Sequence record: NC_007021.1
Origin: Staphylococcus phage Twort
Reading direction: 5' to 3' (one strand)
DNA: 64,000 nt
Shown: one piece after another, positions 2,025-40,857 of the stretch
Layout of the letters: the number at the start of each line of letters is the position of its first letter
Numbering within the stretch: the first letter of the stretch is position 1
Notes under the pieces: model-generated
Seen by the model: only the letters and a program-made list of their open reading frames with translations
What the model was told of the DNA's origin: nothing
Databases searched by the model: none
Translations under genes and position numbers: made by a program

Positions 2025-3262
2025 AAGGAGAGATTTTCTTGGCTAGAGCTAAAAAAGGACAGGAAGTAGATTTATCACAATTAAATACAATTGATTTAGG
2101 GAAAGAAATGGGATTAACATTACTTTCTGATACGAATAAAGCTGATATTAAAAACATTTTACCTACTATGGTTCCACAGTATGATAGAATCTTAGGAGGA
2201 GGTATTCCACTAGGACGACTTACCGAGGTTTACGGTTTAAATGCGAGCGGTAAATCGACATTTGCTGTTCATTTATCACGTATCACCACTCAGCTAGGTG
2301 TCATTACAGTATGGATTGATATTGAAGGTACTGCTGACAATAGACGAATGGAGCAGTTAGGTGTAGATGTATCTAAATTATTCTCTATTCAAGCAGGTGA
2401 AGGCAGACTTAAAAATACGGTAGAATTATCTATTGAAACTGTAGGTAAGGAGTTAGAATACTGGATTGATACTTTTAATGAGAAATTACCAGGTGTACCT
2501 ATTCTATTTATTTGGGATTCTTTAGGAGGTACACGTACCGATGAAGAAATTAAAGGTGGTATTGATACTAAGAAACTAGGTATTAGAGCTTCTAGCGCAC
2601 AAAAAGTTATTAACGCTATTACTCCTAAGTTAAATGAAACAAATACAGGTGTGTTAATTATTAACCAAGCACGAGATAACTTAAATATGAGTAACCCTTA
2701 CGATGACCCTATTAAGTCTACAGGTGGTAGGGCGTTTGAACATGCGGCTAGTTTACGTATTAAGGTAAATAAAGGGGCGCAAATCAAACAAGCAAAAGCC
2801 AGTGGTAAAGATGAATACTCAGGTCATATTATGCGTATTGAAACTAAAAAATCTAAACTATCAAGACCAAACCAAAAGGCTGAAGCTCACCTGCTATCCG
2901 AGTGGGAGTTATCTGACGGTACATTACTGAATGGATTAGACCTACATAATGTTGTGTATCAAGAGGCTGTAGAAAAAGGTTTAATCACTAAAGGCGCTTG
3001 GAGAAATTATATTACTTTAAATGGTGAAGAGATTAAGTTACGAGATGCTGAATGGGTACCTAGATTAAAAGAAGATTATGAGCTTTATTTAGAACTATTT
3101 AAACGTACTTATGTGGAGAACTTCCCTAATGGATACTCCCCGCTAGAAAATAAGACGGTAGATGTTACACAATTAGATGAATACCAAGCATTAGAGGATT
3201 ACTACACAGCATTAAAGGAATCTGATAATGAGCAAGCAGTAGAGGAAGATGATAATGAATAA
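2015..3262 (+). CDS. RecA/UvsX-like recombinase
   Basis: Walker A GLNASGKST inside GGIPLGRLTEVYG context typical of RecA core; Walker B-like ILFIWDS; 415 aa. Confidence 0.8.
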   Translation: MDIKGEIFLARAKKGQEVDLSQLNTIDLGKEMGLTLLSDTNKADIKNILPTMVPQYDRILGGGIPLGRLTEVYGLNASGKSTFAVHLSRITTQLGVITVWIDIEGTADNRRMEQLGVDVSKLFSIQAGEGRLKNTVELSIETVGKELEYWIDTFNEKLPGVPILFIWDSLGGTRTDEEIKGGIDTKKLGIRASSAQKVINAITPKLNETNTGVLIINQARDNLNMSNPYDDPIKSTGGRAFEHAASLRIKVNKGAQIKQAKASGKDEYSGHIMRIETKKSKLSRPNQKAEAHLLSEWELSDGTLLNGLDLHNVVYQEAVEKGLITKGAWRNYITLNGEEIKLRDAEWVPRLKEDYELYLELFKRTYVENFPNGYSPLENKTVDVTQLDEYQALEDYYTALKESDNEQAVEEDDNE

Positions 3263-3602
3263 CTTAATTGATGACAATATTAAAAAGGTTAAAAGGGCGT
3301 TAGTTGATACTAACTCCCTTGATATTGTACCTGAACCTTATCTTGCTATTGCTAGTAAGTTTAAGAAAGTAAGAGAAAAAGGTGAATCCGTTATTCTTGA
3401 AGAAGCAGGATTTCCTCATACTAATTCTACTATTATGTATATTGATTATGTTTCTGACAGATGGGTTTTAGGTTACTCATATACAAAATCTGAAAGAGAA
3501 ACTGTAAAAATACCTAGAACTATTCATTATTCTGACATTTATGTAACAGACAAATCACATAAAGTAAATGTAATTTTTGAAGGGGAGAATCCTTATGAAT
3601 AG
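3249..3602 (+). CDS. hypothetical protein (117 aa)
   Basis: ORF in operon, overlapping neighbours. Confidence 0.5.
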   Translation: MIMNNLIDDNIKKVKRALVDTNSLDIVPEPYLAIASKFKKVREKGESVILEEAGFPHTNSTIMYIDYVSDRWVLGYSYTKSERETVKIPRTIHYSDIYVTDKSHKVNVIFEGENPYE

Positions 3603-4230
3603 ATACGTAGTAGACCCTTCAATGAACGATTTAGAAAGGGATGTAGATACCTTACTTTATAAGTATAAAAACTTAAGGTGGTCACTCTACCATAGATATG
3701 CAGGTGTATTATCTAATGAATCAGAACGCCAAGAGTTACAAGAGTATATAGATGAGCAATTTATTAAACTTGTTAAAGAGTATAATATTAGAAGTGGTGT
3801 AGATTTTCCTGGCTATATTAAATCAAAACTTACATTAAGAGTTAGAAACAGTTATGTAAAGAAGAATAAGAAATATAAAAAAACAGAACTTCTAGGTAAT
3901 AAAGATAATACTGTTGAAATGTTATCAGAACAGTTAGTTAGTGGTGTTAATGAGTCTGATGTAATTAGTTATGTGTTTGAAGGTGTAGAATTTAACGACA
4001 TTCAAAAACTATTACTCTATTACTTATTAGATGATGGGTATCATGAAGACTCTGCTATTATTAGACTTGTATCGGAGGAACTAGCAGTACAACGAAAAGA
4101 GGTATCTAAAGAGCTAGAAGAACTTAGAACTTATATTAAGTTTAAAATTGATGCTTATCATGAGAACTTTACTAAAAATTTAATGGAGCATGGCAAGGTA
4201 AATACAGAAAATACAACATGGGAGCTGTAA
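3577..4230 (+). CDS. putative phage sigma factor-like protein
   Basis: 217 aa; DFPGYIKSKLTLRVRNSYV resembles sigma-70 region 2 aromatic/basic segment; position immediately after recombinase as in Kayvirus-type genomes; weak. Confidence 0.4.
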   Translation: MKGRILMNRYVVDPSMNDLERDVDTLLYKYKNLRWSLYHRYAGVLSNESERQELQEYIDEQFIKLVKEYNIRSGVDFPGYIKSKLTLRVRNSYVKKNKKYKKTELLGNKDNTVEMLSEQLVSGVNESDVISYVFEGVEFNDIQKLLLYYLLDDGYHEDSAIIRLVSEELAVQRKEVSKELEELRTYIKFKIDAYHENFTKNLMEHGKVNTENTTWEL

Positions 4231-6051: not shown

Positions 6052-6785
6052 TGCTTATTATTTACAATAAGAACCATATACAATCAAAAGAAGTTCACAA
6101 GCATTTAGGATATAGTGTAAATGAGAATGTTTGTGCTGTAGTAAATAACCAAGATGCTATTAAAGTAGTTAAAGAGTCACAAGATACTGATATTATGTTA
6201 GTAGGGTTTATTTACACAAAAGACCTTGAGTGTTTAGTAGAATTAGGTAAAACTATCTATTGGGTATCTAACATAGGTACTATACCTAGCTTATTTAAAC
6301 ACGTGGATAATAGTAAAATAAAATCTTTATTAGAGCAAGCAGTAGAACTTCTACCAGAAGAATACGGTGTTTTTGAGTACACTAAAGAATCTATGAAGAA
6401 AGCTACTGACTACTATAACTTTAAAAACGATGACTACTTAGAAGAAGTAGACATTGACAAAGACCTTATTGACATGTTAGCTAAAAAATGCTATACTAAT
6501 GGAGACTTACACTTTCTGTATGAATTAGACCCTAAACTTAGATTACCTATTGCATATAGTATTACAAGGGGTAAAGATAAAGCTATTGTAGTTATAGGGT
6601 CACAAACAGCTAGTGATAATGATATGCTTTCTTTCTATGTAAAAGGATATGATGTAAGTAAACTAGCAAATACATTTAATGCAGAATATGAAGTTGGTAA
6701 TAACACCTTTACTACCTTTATTCCTAGTCATATTAATGTAGTAGGTAAAAGTATAAAAAAGTATATGGAGGATTCCGATGTATAA
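6051..6785 (+). CDS. hypothetical protein (244 aa)
   Basis: ATGA overlap with upstream ORF. Confidence 0.55.
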   Translation: MLIIYNKNHIQSKEVHKHLGYSVNENVCAVVNNQDAIKVVKESQDTDIMLVGFIYTKDLECLVELGKTIYWVSNIGTIPSLFKHVDNSKIKSLLEQAVELLPEEYGVFEYTKESMKKATDYYNFKNDDYLEEVDIDKDLIDMLAKKCYTNGDLHFLYELDPKLRLPIAYSITRGKDKAIVVIGSQTASDNDMLSFYVKGYDVSKLANTFNAEYEVGNNTFTTFIPSHINVVGKSIKKYMEDSDV

Positions 6786-13647: not shown

Positions 13648-14035
13648 TAAGAAATGGCTATTTTATGTATTACTTTTTGCTGTTCTATTAAGCGCTGTAT
13701 TTGCATATTCTTGGACTTCTATTTACTATGAGAAAAATGCGTATGATTCAGGTGTAGTCCAAGACAGTGAAAGTAATAATACTAAAAATAATGGAGATAT
13801 AGAATATGTTACAACAGTAACATTAAAAAAGGATACAGATAAGAAAGCTACATTTATGGATGAGTTACCAAACTTTTTACCTGGAAGAACGGATGGTAAA
13901 ACTATAGATAAAAGTTTTTACAAATCTAGTGACTTTCGTGAAGGTGAGAGATTTAAATTATATAGAATTTACACAAGAGATAATAATGGTGAGGTAACAC
14001 ATAAGTATCGTTTTGAAAAGGAAGTAGATAATTAG
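13631..14035 (+). CDS. membrane-anchored/secreted protein (N-terminal TM)
   Basis: WLFYVLLFAVLLSAVFAYSW hydrophobic N-terminus. Confidence 0.5.
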   Translation: MGKMSSKKWLFYVLLFAVLLSAVFAYSWTSIYYEKNAYDSGVVQDSESNNTKNNGDIEYVTTVTLKKDTDKKATFMDELPNFLPGRTDGKTIDKSFYKSSDFREGERFKLYRIYTRDNNGEVTHKYRFEKEVDN

Positions 14036-14122
14036 TGGCTCCTTTAACTATATCAATTATTATAGGTATTTGTATTATATATTATTTATTTGAGAAAGAT
14101 TAGGTTAAGTGGAAGTTTTCCC

Positions 14123-14150
14123 TTGACCTTTTTTTATTTATCTGTATAAT
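14123..14150 (+). promoter_or_regulatory. promoter TTGACC-N16-TATAAT following terminator-like hairpin
   Basis: ttgacc 14123-14128, tataat 14145-14150. Confidence 0.55.
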
Positions 14151-14167
14151 ATTAATTAGGAGGGATT

Positions 14168-14410
14168 TTGATGATGAATTTAAAAATATTTTATGAAGAG
14201 GTTAAACAATTAGAAAATAGAAAGATTGCCAAGGAGCAGGTATTACTAGAATCAATGAAAACATTTAGTAAGTTAAGAGGAACTTTAACAAATAGTCAAT
14301 TAAGTCTTGACATTCTTTTAAATTATGGTATAGTTGAATATATCAAATATAAAAGGTATTTAGGAAGATTACAAAATTGTGTAGTAAAAGCATATAAGGA
14401 GGAGTATTAA
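14168..14410 (+). CDS. hypothetical protein (80 aa)
   Basis: ORF with RBS aggaggga. Confidence 0.5.
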   Translation: MMMNLKIFYEEVKQLENRKIAKEQVLLESMKTFSKLRGTLTNSQLSLDILLNYGIVEYIKYKRYLGRLQNCVVKAYKEEY

Positions 14411-14634
14411 TGTTATTTTTTAAAGAAAAGTTTTATAATGAATTAAGTTATTATAGAGGTGGACACAAGGATTTAGAAAGTATGTTTGAGTTAGCGTTAG
14501 AGTATATTGAGAAATTAGAAGAAGAAGATGAACAGCAGGTAACTGATTATGAGAACGCTATGGAAGAAGAATTAAGGGATGCTGTTGATGTAATTGAGAG
14601 TCAGTTAGAAATTATTAAGGATATAGTTCGATGA
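14410..14634 (+). CDS. hypothetical acidic protein (74 aa)
   Basis: ORF with RBS aaggagg. Confidence 0.5.
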   Translation: MLFFKEKFYNELSYYRGGHKDLESMFELALEYIEKLEEEDEQQVTDYENAMEEELRDAVDVIESQLEIIKDIVR

Positions 14635-14794
14635 GTGGGTTTAATGATTTTCTTAAACAAGAATCTAAAAGGGTTAATAAACCACTCAAGAAACAGAGAA
14701 AGAAGAAAGAAACACCTATAGAAGAAGTGCAAGAAAAGTTAGCTAAAATAAGAAGTAAATCAAAGTATATGGATTTAGGTAGGAGATATAAATG
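14630..14794 (+). CDS. small basic protein (54 aa), not in supplied ORF track
   Basis: ATGA overlap with upstream stop; MSGFNDFLKQESKRVNKPLKKQRKKKETPIEEVQEKLAKIRSKSKYMDLGRRYK. Confidence 0.35.
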
Positions 14795-14998
14795 AAAACC
14801 TATACATGCAATAGGGTATCGGCTAGTGTTGAAGAACTTAAACAGTACAAAGATTTCAGGTTATTATTCGGGTTTGATGATGTTGTATTATATTTACTTA
14901 GTGAGCAAGATGAAGCAAAAACATTTAAAATGGAAAAGAAAGAATTAGAAAAAATAGAAAAGAAATATAGTAATGAACCTTTCTTTTCTTACTTATAG
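14792..14998 (+). CDS. hypothetical protein (68 aa)
   Basis: ORF with RBS aggagat. Confidence 0.45.
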   Translation: MKTYTCNRVSASVEELKQYKDFRLLFGFDDVVLYLLSEQDEAKTFKMEKKELEKIEKKYSNEPFFSYL

Positions 14999-15096
14999 GA
15001 GGGTATTGTAACAGGTAGTAATAATTTATAAAAACTTATAAATTTATTTGCATTTTTGGATAAAGTATGCTATGTTATATTTAGAGGTGATAATAT

Positions 15097-15177
15097 GGCA
15101 TATATGTCTATAGGAAAATTTAGTAAAGAGATAGGTGTTACACTCAAACATTACGTAATTGGCAGGGTGAATTAACT
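15097..15177 (+). pseudogene. remnant of IS607-type TnpA serine recombinase N-terminus (MerR-like HTH), frameshifted and truncated
   Basis: MAYMSIGKFSKEIGVTLK then in +1 frame TLRNWQGELTN; matches conserved N-terminal HTH of IS607 TnpA; stops after ~27 codons and overlaps tnpB start. Confidence 0.5.
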
Positions 15178-15178
15178 A

Positions 15179-16288
15179 ATGATAACGAAAAAAGTTAGAC
15201 TTAAACCTACTAAACAACAGGAGTTAAAATTACGTAAATCAGCAGATATAGCACGATTTATATATAATTGGACTTTAGCAAAACAACAAGAAAATTATAA
15301 ACAAGGCAATAAATTTATACAAGATTCTGTGTTAAGAAAAGAAATAACACAATTAAAGAAAACTGAAGAGTTTAGATGGTTAAATGAAGTAAGTAATAAT
15401 ATTCCTAAGCAAGCAGTTAAAGATGCTTGTAATGCTTACAAAAGATTTTTTAAAAAACAATCTGGTTTTCCTAAATTTAAATCTAAAAAGAAAACAAGAC
15501 CTAGTTTCTATAATGATACACAAAAACTAAAAGTAAAAGAAAAATCAGTATTATTAGAAAAAGTGGGTTGGGTTAGAACATCTGAACAATTACCTGTAGG
15601 TACTAAGTACTACAATCCTAGAATCACTTTTGATGGTAAATATTGGTATATAAGTGTTTCTATTGAAGAAGAAAATAAATATGAAGAACTAACAAACGAA
15701 TCTTTAGGTATTGATTTAGGAATAAAAGAATTAGCCGTATGCTCTGATGGAAGTATTTATGAAAATATTAACAAAACAATAAGAGTTAAAAAACTAGAAA
15801 AACGATTACGTAGATTGCAACGTAAGGTATCTCGTAAATACCAAAATAATAAAGAAGGGAGTACCTTTGTCAAAACTTGCAATATTATAAAACTTGAAAA
15901 ACAAATTAAACTCTTACAACGAAGATTGTCTAACATTCGTAAAAACTATTTACATCAAACAACAACTTCTATAGTGAAAACCAAACCTAGAAGAATTGTT
16001 ATAGAAGATTTGAATGTAAGTGGTATGATGAAGAATAGACACTTAGCTAAAGCAATACAAAAACAAGGATTCTATGAGTTCCGTAAACAACTAGAATATA
16101 AGTGTGGAAGAAAAGGTATAGAACTTGTTATTGCAGATAGATTCTTTCCTTCTAGTAAAACATGCTCTAATTGTGGTAACATCCACAAAAACTTAAAACT
16201 ATCAGATAGAATATTTAAGTGTGACTGTGGTTTTAGTATTGATAGAGACCTTAATGCTAGTATTAATTTAGCTAATTATAATATTTAG
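15179..16288 (+). CDS. tnpB: TnpB (IS605/IS607-family OrfB) RuvC-like RNA-guided endonuclease
   Basis: RuvC-I GIDLGIKELAVCSDG, RuvC-II RIVIEDLNVSGM, zinc finger CSNCGN...CDCGF, RuvC-III DRDLNASINLA; 369 aa. Confidence 0.85.
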   Translation: MITKKVRLKPTKQQELKLRKSADIARFIYNWTLAKQQENYKQGNKFIQDSVLRKEITQLKKTEEFRWLNEVSNNIPKQAVKDACNAYKRFFKKQSGFPKFKSKKKTRPSFYNDTQKLKVKEKSVLLEKVGWVRTSEQLPVGTKYYNPRITFDGKYWYISVSIEEENKYEELTNESLGIDLGIKELAVCSDGSIYENINKTIRVKKLEKRLRRLQRKVSRKYQNNKEGSTFVKTCNIIKLEKQIKLLQRRLSNIRKNYLHQTTTSIVKTKPRRIVIEDLNVSGMMKNRHLAKAIQKQGFYEFRKQLEYKCGRKGIELVIADRFFPSSKTCSNCGNIHKNLKLSDRIFKCDCGFSIDRDLNASINLANYNI

Positions 16289-16289
16289 A

Positions 16290-16440
16290 TTATCACTAAT
16301 AAGATACTAAATATATGTACCATTCGTTGTATGGGAATTTAAGCCTTTGGAGTATCATACAAACTTGAGTAGAGTAAATGAATATAGTAATTTACTCAAA
16401 AGGGGATACGTTGAAAAAGGAATATAATTTATAAAGTTTT
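16290..16440 (+). ncRNA. candidate omega RNA / right-end region of the TnpB element
   Basis: Perfect hairpin gagtaaat-gaatatagta-atttactc at about 16368-16398 immediately 3' of tnpB; omega RNAs normally overlap the tnpB 3' end and right end. Confidence 0.4.
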
Positions 16441-16465
16441 ATAAATTTTTGACAACGGGAATCAT

Positions 16466-16666
16466 ATGTTAACTATTCTAGTACTCATTTGGGTATTACT
16501 ATTTTTAACTGTTTTATTTAATATTAAAGTAGGGAATATTTTTATTCTAGGTGATTATGTAGAATTTAAAGACAAATTTGTGGCAGTATCGTTCTTATTA
16601 TTTTTATTGCTGTCTATGTTAATTGGTTTAATAATTATTCTTAAAGGAGTGTATGGACAATGGTAA
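16466..16666 (+). CDS. small membrane protein (66 aa, 2 TM)
   Basis: hydrophobic ORF. Confidence 0.45.
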   Translation: MLTILVLIWVLLFLTVLFNIKVGNIFILGDYVEFKDKFVAVSFLLFLLLSMLIGLIIILKGVYGQW

Positions 16667-16938
16667 AAGGAAACATTAAAGAACTTTTAAATTGTATTTG
16701 TGGTTGTGTAGATTCATTTATGGATGAAGGTAAAAGTTATGTAGTGTATTCAGACAAAAAAGTATTTGTTAAGTATAAAGGTGTTGTTATTGCAAGTATT
16801 GAAGATGATGTTGTTCATAGTAATGTATACCAACTTAAGACTGGTACTATAGAAAAACAAACCTTATATACTTTAGTTAAAGCACTTCAGTATTTAGTTA
16901 GTCTGGAGTATAGAGAACGAGAAGATATAAATATTTAA
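16660..16938 (+). CDS. hypothetical protein (92 aa)
   Basis: ORF with RBS aaggag. Confidence 0.5.
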   Translation: MVKGNIKELLNCICGCVDSFMDEGKSYVVYSDKKVFVKYKGVVIASIEDDVVHSNVYQLKTGTIEKQTLYTLVKALQYLVSLEYREREDINI

Positions 16939-16956
16939 AAAAGTTTAGGGAATCTG

Positions 16957-16985
16957 TTGACATTCAGATTCCCTTTTGTTATACT
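16957..16985 (+). promoter_or_regulatory. consensus promoter TTGACA-N17-TATACT embedded in terminator hairpin gggaatctg...cagattccc
   Basis: ttgaca 16957-16962; -10 at 16980-16985; hairpin arms flank the -35. Confidence 0.6.
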
Positions 16986-17007
16986 CTAATTAAGATAAGA
17001 AAAGGAG

Positions 17008-17580
17008 ATGTTTCATATGAAAAAATTATTTATGGTAGGAAGTTTAGGTCTGATGTTATTCGTAGGAGGTTGTGGTACTACAGAGCATAAAGAAGGTTCT
17101 CTGGAATCTAACACTAATGAAGTTGTAACAACAGAACAAAGTACAACACAAGAGTATAATGGAAGTAGTGAAGGTGGAAACGGAAACCCTAATGCAAATG
17201 TAACAACTGACCCAAGTGAAAAATATTTATCTGACTTTTTTGAGTCTAGGGCACAAGGAACAATATTAGATAGATTAGACCGCTATGCAGAATTAGTAGG
17301 TAAAATTAATAACCCAGAGGAAAACGTAGAAGCAGAAACATTACAATATGCTATTAAGAATATGGACACTTATGTAGAAGAGTTACCTGTTGAAACAGAA
17401 GACGATGCTAAGGCACAAGAACAACTAAGACAAATGGTTCAATACTATAAGCAAGCAAATGAAAACTTTAAAGAATACCAAGATACTGGTGATATAAATA
17501 AACTAAATAAAGGTAACGAAATGTATAATGAAGGATATACTTTAGAAGTAGAAGTAAAAAGAGGGACTAACTTAATTTAG
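17008..17580 (+). CDS. lipoprotein (signal peptide with lipobox LFVGGC)
   Basis: MKKLFMVGSLGLMLFVGGCG; likely true start near 17017. Confidence 0.6.
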   Translation: MFHMKKLFMVGSLGLMLFVGGCGTTEHKEGSLESNTNEVVTTEQSTTQEYNGSSEGGNGNPNANVTTDPSEKYLSDFFESRAQGTILDRLDRYAELVGKINNPEENVEAETLQYAIKNMDTYVEELPVETEDDAKAQEQLRQMVQYYKQANENFKEYQDTGDINKLNKGNEMYNEGYTLEVEVKRGTNLI

Positions 17581-17596
17581 GAGGAGGAGATAAATA

Positions 17597-17953
17597 ATGG
17601 AAAGAGTTACATGGGAAGATATTAAAAGATTAATAATACGCAATGGAACACTAGTACCACCGAATCTGCATGTTTATACAATAGGCAACTATCAAATTAA
17701 TTATCATATACTAGAAGATAAAATATGTTTATGCAAGGATAATGTAGAAGTAGCAGTCATAAAAGGACATATGCCTTGTCATATCACAGAGTTAGAGGAG
17801 GTTACTAATAAAGCACTAAGGTTAAATAAGGGTATTACAAGTGTAATTGATTACTATAAGAAACAATACTTGTATTATAATAAATTAGAAAATGAAAGAA
17901 AAGAGCAGGAAGAAGAGAAACTAGAAAAGTTACAATCTTTTATGAATAAATAA
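17597..17953 (+). CDS. hypothetical protein (118 aa); paralog of 24681..25025
   Basis: Shared C-terminal pattern VIDYYKK...EEEKLEKL vs VMDYYLIK...EEQRKLDK. Confidence 0.5.
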   Translation: MERVTWEDIKRLIIRNGTLVPPNLHVYTIGNYQINYHILEDKICLCKDNVEVAVIKGHMPCHITELEEVTNKALRLNKGITSVIDYYKKQYLYYNKLENERKEQEEEKLEKLQSFMNK

Positions 17954-17966
17954 GGAGGAATAGCTA

Positions 17967-18167
17967 ATGCGCCATGTAGAAATTAGGGAAAAAATAAACG
18001 GGAAACAGGTTATTGTATTCTTTAAAAACCATTTCTTTAATAGAACTGTTGTGGTACTTGATTTAGATACAGGAGAACTTATCAATTTACCTAAAAAATC
18101 TATAGAGGAAGTGTATCCTATTTTAGTAGGGAACTTAGATACAAAAGAATTAAAAAAATATATTTAA
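17967..18167 (+). CDS. hypothetical protein (66 aa)
   Basis: ORF with RBS aaggagg. Confidence 0.45.
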   Translation: MRHVEIREKINGKQVIVFFKNHFFNRTVVVLDLDTGELINLPKKSIEEVYPILVGNLDTKELKKYI

Positions 18168-40785: not shown

Positions 40786-40857
40786 TGGACTCTGTAGGGA
40801 TTGAACCTACACTCCAACGCTTATGAGGCGTTTGCTTTACCATTAAGCTAAGAGTCC
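40786..40857 (-). tRNA. tRNA-Met/Ile2 (anticodon CAU)
   Basis: Minus-strand read GGACTCTTAGCTTAATGGTAAAGCAAACGCCTCATAAGCGTTGGAGTGTAGGTTCAATCCCTACAGAGTCCA: 7-bp acceptor, D-arm, anticodon loop CTCATAA, T-loop GGTTCAATCC. Confidence 0.8.

Follow-up and report, generated by a model that had tools for sequence, protein, structure and literature searches.

A non-autonomous IS607-family element of Staphylococcus phage Twort with an intact TnpB gene and a proposed role in homing or retention

Why does a lytic staphylococcal phage keep a complete gene for an RNA-guided nuclease beside the broken remains of a transposase? The question is raised by a locus of Staphylococcus phage Twort, which we analyzed within a stretch of 64,000 nucleotides of record NC_007021.1 (the window, to which all coordinates refer unless another sequence is named). 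A first-pass annotation made from the sequence had reported there a TnpB gene, a fragment of an IS607-type TnpA and a downstream hairpin. We estimate a probability of roughly 0.8 that positions 15003-16458 are a non-autonomous IS607-family element whose TnpB and guide RNA cut empty alleles of the insertion site, presumably serving homing or retention of the element. The identity of its parts, its boundaries, the motif at its insertion site, the architecture of its RNA, purifying selection on tnpB and the use of multiple insertion sites are demonstrated by the comparisons that follow, and the profile, covariance-model and BLAST scores of the parts lie well outside the chance range. The window belongs to the Twortvirinae, in agreement with the staphylococcal myovirus proposed as host.

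The extent of the element was determined by comparison with related phages, as the first-pass annotation had suggested, and this comparison both revealed presence and absence of the insertion and defined its ends. The S. pseudintermedius phage DH2, the nearest phage in our BLAST collection (81-85% identity), is collinear with the window on either side, up to position 14968 at the left, and is without about 1.46 kb. Its empty site reads CTTATAAAGAGG directly followed by TGAATTTATG. In the window, the left junction reads CTTATAGGAGG followed by GTATTGTAACAGG... and the right junction ...TTTTTGACAACGG followed by GAATCATATG. All phage copies examined have the right end ...TTGACAACGG, past which their sequences differ. 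Because DH2 provides the empty site and the right end is invariant with diverging flanks, the element is assigned to about 15003-16458; a run of three Gs at the junction leaves an ambiguity of 1 nt at the left boundary. On the plus strand, the phage sequence to the left ends in the target motif AGGAGG (14997-15002), formerly the Shine-Dalgarno sequence of the downstream gene; the last two letters of this motif are the GG crossover dinucleotide. The element then consists of a left end (LE, 15003-15094, from the alignment of copies), a tnpA remnant (15095-15178), tnpB (15179-16288, 369 aa) and a predicted guide-RNA scaffold with the right end (RE, 16289-16458), all on the plus strand. Within the LE, junction nucleotides that vary among copies (15003-15008) precede the conserved sequence TAACAGGTAGTAAT, which starts at 15009 in the same alignment. 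They are followed by a subterminal direct repeat (15021-15045) with a second copy at the right end (22/25 identical), by a promoter-like motif recognized from conservation among copies only (TTGCAT at 15048-15053, 17 nt, then (TGc)TATGTT with the hexamer at 15071-15076) and by the ribosome-binding site GAGGTGA (15084-15090, plus strand). The 25-nt subterminal repeat is probably the TnpA binding site, and its RE copy also forms the 3' hairpin of the RNA.

The product of tnpB was identified by profile, motif and structure comparisons. It matches the NCBIfam model NF040570 (guided_TnpB) with 325.9 bits over residues 5-366 (cut-off 100) and contains the Pfam domains HTH_OrfB_IS605, OrfB_IS605 and Cas12f1-like_TNB, each above its cut-off. 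The motifs GIDLG (D179), IEDLN (E276), CSNCG/CDCG (C329, C332, C348 and C350) and DRDLNA (D357) are all present, leaving the RuvC catalytic triad D179/E276/D357 unsubstituted and the four-cysteine zinc finger C329/C332/C348/C350 intact; the initial description of the gene as an intact TnpB is thus confirmed. The closest solved structure is ISFba1 TnpB (PDB 8IAZ, E 7.9e-88, full-length match). Next in rank come 9YYG, an RNA-guided nuclease designed by AI (E 6e-56), and ISDra2 TnpB (8BF8/8EXA and 8H1J, E 3e-45). D179, E276 and D357 align with D194, E290 and D371 of ISFba1 (residue numbers per PMC11061315), and the solved 8IAZ chain carries D371A at this third catalytic position. The protein is 100% identical to AAX92317.1, YP_238637.1 and QIW89175.1, annotated as 'mobile element protein/transposase [Staphylococcus phage Twort]'. 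IS607 TnpB with a RAGATH-18 guide RNA is an endonuclease that cuts double-stranded DNA next to a target-adjacent motif (TAM) (PMC11061315), and Twort TnpB is predicted by analogy to be an RNA-guided, TAM-dependent double-stranded DNA endonuclease.

The nature of the upstream fragment was established by alignment to the intact tnpA of phage vB_SauM_VL10, which encodes 204 aa with a MerR helix-turn-helix (HTH) domain (41.5 bits) and a Resolvase domain (68.6 bits). The fragment is a remnant of an IS607-type MerR-HTH serine recombinase gene, as had been proposed, although its start at 15097 has to be moved by 2 nt because the ATG begins at 15095 (15095-15097). Of the gene, 70 nt at the start and ~14 nt at the end are retained; relative to VL10, a single nucleotide is missing between 15141 and 15142, and a 504-nt deletion between 15164 and 15165 has taken out the entire catalytic domain. 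After frame repair, the peptide reaches 23.1 bits against MerR, under the cut-off of 28.2, and by tblastn the remnant matches with 89% identity over 18 aa. The same 504-nt deletion junction was found in a second copy (L051; Logan SRR26902301 contig, 2300-3802), identical to window 14985-16480 in this respect and located at another genomic site. In this comparison the left end and remnant leader are ~93-95% identical, exceeding the conservation of the synonymous sites of tnpB (synonymous divergence, pS, 0.29).

Loss of tnpA is the rule among relatives of the element. Of about 14 copies examined, that of VL10 alone has an intact gene. Different deletions are found in Twort/L051, L004/L052, L005, phage 110 and the Romulus-type copies, the last of which have lost the whole left end. 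A subfamily comprising Kayvirus, PALS_1 and PG-2021 copies has a tnpA cut down to an ORF of 85-86 aa retaining only the MerR domain, which may be a retained regulator or an end-binding protein. This MerR-HTH-only ORF (L041:2088-2345, L046:1752-2012, L047:1755-2012 and L045) overlaps the start of tnpB and occurs at three insertion sites. Overall, there were five or more independent losses of tnpA, and tnpB still encodes 369 aa.

The sequence following tnpB was identified as a guide-RNA scaffold merged with the right end. In IS607 elements RAGATH-18 is the core of the TnpB guide RNA (reRNA, or omega-RNA), lying between 5' and 3' motifs and followed by a guide of ~20 nt, and in the ISFba1 reRNA the loop of the 5' hairpin pairs with the 3' end of the scaffold in a pseudoknot, PK2 (PMC11061315). 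The RAGATH-18 covariance model (Rfam RF03064) matches the plus strand at 16344-16422, 55 nt past the tnpB stop, with 67.6 bits against a gathering score of 44.9, and this is its only match across the 64-kb window. The perfect hairpin noticed at the outset (GAGTAAAT at 16372-16379, ATTTACTC at 16390-16397; 84-109 nt after the stop) is its apical stem (16372-16397, plus strand). The core is preceded by a 5' hairpin (16320-16334) with the loop CGTTGT (16325-16330) and followed by the 3' hairpin (16424-16448), which is also the RE subterminal repeat, by ACAACG (16452-16457), which pairs with the loop, and by the terminal GG of the RE (16457-16458), all on the plus strand. Among 22 relatives gathered from phages and bacteria, RAGATH-18 lies directly 3' of tnpB in 22/22. 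Covariation was assessed in 20 of them by joining the 5' motif to the last 14 nt before the scaffold end: compensatory changes affect 4/4 pairs of the 5' hairpin, and one pair of the pseudoknot has changed on both sides, with the variants GTTG/CAAC, GTTA/TAAC, GTTC/GAAC and GTTGC/GCAAC. For hairpin and pseudoknot, 94% of cells are paired, compared to 28-51% when the partner is slid, and the observed covariation score was reached by 0/500 shuffles. This pseudoknot between 5' loop and 3' end corresponds to PK2 of the published reRNA. Together with the RAGATH-18 match, it bears out the view of the 3' flank as scaffold and right end. A terminator search found none. An IStron was also considered and rejected: an Rfam E-value scan of 14000-18000 contains no group I intron, and the LE is only ~90 nt long.

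The flanks of the element carry a candidate target motif and a predicted guide. TAMs reported for RAGATH-18 IS607 TnpB are AGGAG and GAGGG (PMC11061315), and the left flank AGGAGGG (14997-15003) holds both. Left flanks at eight phage sites end in RAGG (for example AAAGG, AGAGG and TGAGG). The GG is found at the RE and at the target at all sites; the RE carries a C at position -3, unlike the RAGG left flanks. A parallel is offered by CboTnpB, in which the target TGGG differs from the scaffold end TCGG (PMC10690162), and RAGG against ...CGG in Twort would provide the same kind of self-avoidance. Directly 3' of the RE, the 20-nt phage sequence GAATCATATGTTAACTATTC (16459-16478, plus strand) is the predicted guide, placed by analogy with the 20-nt optimum of ISFba1 and with the scaffold end …UCGG of CboTnpB. 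The guide sequence differs at each insertion site; as the RE is invariant and the flank is different per site, it behaves as expected of a guide. Within the window, with up to 3 mismatches allowed, it matches its own position only. An exact search of IMG/VR gave no match, so that neither an exact target nor a second Twort copy is present there.

The element splits the ribosome-binding site of a small gene in the early region at the GG of its Shine-Dalgarno sequence; this gene is a hydrophobic ORF of 66 aa (16466-16666, plus strand, ATG at 16466; from the ORF list and the DH2 alignment), and the predicted guide spans the spacer and the first codons of this gene. This location is not peculiar to Twort. 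An ORF of at least 40 aa starts no more than 15 nt past the RE in 19 of 23 loci, phage and bacterial, compared to 16.7% at random positions of the same loci; placement within ribosome-binding sites, 5-14 nt ahead of start codons, is general for the RAGATH-18/IS607 clade. The published TAM AGGAG is identical to the Shine-Dalgarno core, a link unstated in the literature searched.

A complete TnpB gene had been regarded as unusual in a virulent staphylococcal myovirus. This view is not supported: a sensitive BLAST search found matches to TnpB in 84 Staphylococcus phage records, relatives at 85-90% identity are present in 61 Twortvirinae records, and further matches occur in Bacillus, Fusobacterium, Clostridium, Campylobacter and Lak phages. 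Some phage records already annotate RAGATH-18 or an 'RNA-guided endonuclease TnpB', and a 2025 Silviavirus paper names RAGATH-18 among phage non-coding RNAs without interpretation. The element is an ordinary member of a characterized family that is common in Twort-like phages and not described as such in the literature searched, where RAGATH-18 appears only in annotation listings and no paper on TnpB or IS607 in Twort-like phages was found.

Copies occupy at least nine different sites. In Twort the element lies in the early-gene region; the VL10 copy is flanked by the portal gene and a gene for a membrane protein. Kayvirus phiSA012, S25-4, PSU6 and HN01 carry it between the tail lysin and glycerophosphodiesterase genes, Silviavirus Romulus, Remus and StAP1 3' of tRNA-Ser, Sepunavirus 110 and the other Sepunavirus copies 3' of the RNR genes, and L051 downstream or upstream of an HU-like gene, its other neighbour being a hypothetical gene that comes before the DNA polymerase gene. 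PALS_1, PG-2021_10, L004/L052 and L005 each have a separate site of their own. Reconstructed empty sites match contiguously in 227 Kayvirus and 49 Silviavirus records. The idea that the VL10 copy splits the portal ORF was discarded, as empty-site phages place it at the TTGA overlap of the membrane-protein and portal genes.

Several of these loci have further features. VL10 carries a second, decayed IS607 copy (L001:6539-6905) between pieces annotated as portal protein, with a short tnpB fragment and a RAGATH-18 match of 63.8 bits. In phage EW20 (L044, an unverified record), tnpB is interrupted: the ORF stops at 156 aa, and compared to sister phages the match has ~10 additional nt, owing either to true decay or to faulty assembly. 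L004 (IMG/VR UViG 2840904412) has a group I intron at 6488-6721 (87.5 bits), ~2 kb downstream of its TnpB element. At the Kayvirus site shared by L041, L046 and L048, the element is 96-98% identical and the flanks 98.4-99.5%; identity within the element forms a mosaic pattern suggestive of exchange among its alleles.

Could the Twort copy be a fresh insertion of an IS from the staphylococcal host, with TnpB intact for lack of time to decay? The IS-like ends, the empty site in the related phage DH2 and a tnpA already broken, like that of a decaying copy, would fit this explanation, which the first-pass annotation had entertained. However, the nearest TnpB copy is only 92% identical, and the tnpA deletion is shared with L051, at a different site, from which tnpB has diverged to pS 0.29 with a ratio of nonsynonymous to synonymous divergence (pN/pS) of 0.146. 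Named homologues of at least 85% identity are all from Staphylococcus phages, on contigs of up to ~145 kb; the nearest named bacterial proteins are ~71% identical (Heyndrickxia and Alkaliphilus), and none of the named close homologues comes from a Staphylococcus chromosome. A bacterial scan with one genome per species gave Bacillaceae matches of at most 66% identity and no Staphylococcus locus. Combined, these data largely refute a recent arrival from the host, which we consider very improbable; judged from the sequences of its homologues, the TnpB lineage appears to be phage-resident.

The evolution of tnpB shows that the gene has been under selection in the absence of a transposase. All 13 full-length copies have exactly 369 codons and keep triad and zinc finger, and the ratio of nonsynonymous to synonymous substitution rates (dN/dS) against the window is 0.10-0.17 in 13 phage copies. 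Among Kayvirus copies with one common tnpA truncation, pS is 0.09-0.16 and pN/pS 0.09-0.12; between Twort and L051, which share the 504-nt deletion, the values are those given above. Since purifying selection persisted past the loss of tnpA, TnpB is maintained for its own activity. Since the same deletion junction is present at two sites, the tnpA-less derivative has changed location. The earlier description of the element as immobilized therefore stands as regards autonomy and is too strong as regards mobility, given that the ends are intact and the same tnpA-deleted derivative is found at a second site.

How did a tnpA-less derivative move? A non-autonomous transposon might be mobilized in trans by the full-length TnpA of a co-infecting phage or of the host, TnpB then performing 'restorative' homing at the vacated site. 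Mobilization in trans is plausible because both ends are intact, with matching subterminal repeats, and because the identical tnpA-deleted derivative occupies two sites; in addition, the MerR-only derivative is found at three sites and an intact tnpA is known in the lineage, in VL10. Against it, intact tnpA was seen in just that one copy, the 64-kb window holds no second serine recombinase, and the left junctions vary, contrary to what would be expected of precise serine recombination. On balance we hold this explanation to be improbable, if still the most serious of the alternatives.

The left junctions deserve a closer description. Right junctions are always exact. At three sites, however, the left junction repeats the first 9-11 nt of the right flank, upstream stop codon included, and at these three sites the stop codon of the upstream gene is located past the inserted GG. 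The Kayvirus repeat (L041/L046/L048) is TGTATATTTAA, 11/11 identical and ending at the stop codon; that of phage 110 (L002) is ATGAAAGATAA against ATGAAGAATAA, 9/11 identical and also ending at the stop codon; that of VL10 (L001) is ATTGAAGCA, 9/9 identical with the TGA stop inside the repeat. Empty-site phages (L049 and L050) have a single copy of the repeated sequence. No clear repeat is present in Twort and PALS_1, where the stop codon lies ahead of the GG. No target duplication is expected for IS607. The repeats could possibly result from selection on imprecise break repair, or from a target preference of TnpA. A bolder and tentative idea, which we would sooner doubt than accept, is that the odd left junctions are repair scars of RNA-guided homing kept by selection, and that the Twort element is part of a phage-resident, transposase-less homing lineage aimed at Shine-Dalgarno/start-codon junctions, which would act as an RNA-guided homing endonuclease or gene drive among lytic phages that co-infect a cell.

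Long-term purifying selection without TnpA is also what would be expected if TnpB and its reRNA served mainly as a weapon that destroys co-infecting competitors with the uninterrupted allele, to the benefit of Twort and with little copying of the element. TnpB-only copies are near fixation in Silviavirus and Sepunavirus genomes, and nuclease-mediated competition between phages has precedent (cited in PMC13565253). Against this use, the guide fits only the orthologous intergenic site, which diverges fast and is already mismatched to the seed in DH2; killing and homing cannot be told apart from sequence data. We regard it as unlikely. Co-option of TnpB for a task other than DNA cleavage, for instance as a TldR-like RNA-guided repressor of the downstream gene, is very improbable. 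The guide does overlap the start of the downstream ORF, and TldR repressors derived from TnpB are known from phages; but the triad and zinc finger are intact in 13/13 full-length copies, the protein is full length, and the occupied allele has no TAM at the target (AACGG, not RAGG), so that binding at its own locus is not expected. We likewise set aside a TldR-like class for the Twort protein, whose intact triad and zinc finger and full length are at odds with a nuclease-dead TnpB derivative. Nor is the recent domestication envisaged by the first-pass annotation needed, as the selfish role in homing or retention already proposed for TnpB covers the data.

Homing or retention through cleavage of empty alleles would proceed as follows. 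A serine-recombinase TnpA would once have inserted the element at the GG of AGGAGG, in the Shine-Dalgarno sequence of the small early-region gene; the catalytic domain of tnpA was lost thereafter, while the ends, the promoter-like leader, tnpB and the RAGATH-18-type guide RNA stayed. A transcript from the left-end promoter would run through the tnpA remnant, tnpB and the right end, and TnpB would bind this transcript and process its 3' part into reRNA, with a scaffold ending at the terminal ...ACAACGG and the adjacent phage sequence 16459-16478 as its 20-nt guide. The TnpB-reRNA complex would cut where an RAGG/AGGAG motif precedes the guide sequence, AGGAGG followed by GAATCATATGTTAACTATTC being the empty allele; the occupied allele, in which the target follows ...AACGG, would for this reason escape cleavage. 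Lytic phages proficient in recombination would mend the break with an element-bearing genome as template, resulting in retention of the element or in its copying into co-infecting relatives. The outcome would be transposon homing, analogous to that of free-standing phage homing endonucleases. There is published precedent for such a scheme: IS607 TnpB cleaves the vacant donor joint and favours retention of the element (PMC10690162), and the possibility of TnpA-independent spread through a cleaved orthologous empty site is discussed under the term 'non-restorative homing', with co-infecting phages as possible targets (PMC13565253).

Several points weigh against this scheme. Firstly, transcription, RNA processing, cleavage and homing are steps that we infer for the Twort element. 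The promoter-like motif of the LE (3/6 and 4/6 hexamer matches) is unlisted in a sigma-70 consensus scan, which gave fewer sites than in shuffles. Secondly, the scaffold function is extrapolated, as the 3' flank of the scaffold is 36 nt in Twort compared to 64 nt in ISFba1 (41-45 nt in the closest bacterial relatives), and the single-sequence fold of 16299-16458 (minimum free energy -26.1 kcal/mol, z -1.06) is no better than shuffles; as folding of one sequence says little about an RNA so rich in A and U, the analysis was based on covariation and on the Rfam model. Thirdly, the TnpB protein misses the cut-off of the NCBIfam IS607_TnpB model (NF038280; 198.1 bits, cut-off 350) and scores higher with the IS200/IS605 TnpB model (269.5 bits, cut-off 425). 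Both are narrow 'exception' models, and the assignment to IS607 was based on the type of tnpA and on RAGATH-18 rather than on the NF038280 score. Fourthly, the search for an empty allele with an exact match to the guide gave none, DH2 differing in the seed region and IMG/VR having no match, so that a present-day target is not on record. Finally, with no TnpA there is no excision, and 'restorative' homing therefore has nothing to restore: TnpB would work only via homing between genomes or with TnpA provided in trans.

The closest characterized counterpart is ISFba1 (Ren et al. 2024, Cell Res, PMC11061315; PDB 8IAZ). Its TnpB shares the catalytic triad and zinc finger with that of Twort; in both, the RAGATH-18 core lies directly downstream on the same strand, the scaffold has a pseudoknot between its 3' end and the loop of the 5' hairpin, and the guide is 3' of the scaffold. 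Sequences of the AGGAG/GAGGG type, the TAMs of ISFba1, occur in the Twort left flank, and tnpA is often a pseudogene. ISFba1 differs in residing on the chromosome of a gut Firmicute rather than in a lytic phage genome, in the size of TnpB (387 aa compared to 369 aa) and in the 3' flank of its scaffold, which has two stem-loops in 64 nt compared to one hairpin in 36 nt; the left flanks observed suggest a looser RAGG motif, and the activity of the Twort protein is a prediction. With the IS607 element CboIStron (Zedaveinyte et al., PMC10690162), Twort shares a serine-recombinase IS607 origin, insertion at GG, and a scaffold end ...CGG against a TAM end ...GGG/AGG in which the -3 base separates self from target; promotion of retention by TnpB and persistence of TnpB-only copies are counted as shared too. 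CboIStron has a group I intron, a TGGG TAM and another RNA family, whereas Twort has no intron in the scanned region 14000-18000 and a predicted AGGAG-like TAM. ISDra2 TnpB (IS200/IS605; 8EXA/8H1J/8BF8) belongs to the same fold family (E 3e-45) and is likewise RNA-guided and TAM-dependent, with a single RuvC site and a guide taken from the right-end flank; unlike Twort, its partner is a Y1 HUH transposase, its TAM is TTGAT, its RNA scaffold is another one and its transposition involves single-stranded DNA. As for function, the element resembles the free-standing homing endonuclease genes of lytic phages (T4 Seg/Mob; PMC13565253), which likewise occupy intergenic positions among conserved genes, are present in some relatives and absent from others, and should spread by cutting the empty allele in co-infection. 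It differs from them in that the target would be read by an RNA guide and a short TAM instead of by a protein, and in having transposon ends and a recombinase remnant.

Two further features complete the description of the window. Upstream of the element, a phage ORF of 68 aa (14792-14998, plus strand, from the ORF list) has its TAG stop at 14996-14998, just ahead of the insertion point; exact-protein look-ups with this and the downstream small ORF, made for a closer empty site, found neither on record. A tRNA gene lies at 40786-40857 on the minus strand (Rfam tRNA, 72.5 bits).

The family and its mechanism have been known since 2024, and the Twort protein has been in GenBank since deposition of the genome, labelled 'mobile element protein' or 'transposase'; the gain is mainly a better annotation, which gives the element precise ends, a guide and a target motif and describes what is left of tnpA. 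About one third of the sequenced Twort-like therapeutic phages carry such elements, mostly without a working transposase and under purifying selection. For the genomics of phage therapy, such 'transposase' calls are no sign of lysogeny or of host-gene transfer. Empty alleles in close relatives make TnpB testable as a natural RNA-guided homing endonuclease by co-infection crosses. If the existence of a homing lineage proved true, lytic phages would offer a first natural case of RNA-guided homing, and a route would be known by which IS607 elements move or persist without TnpA.

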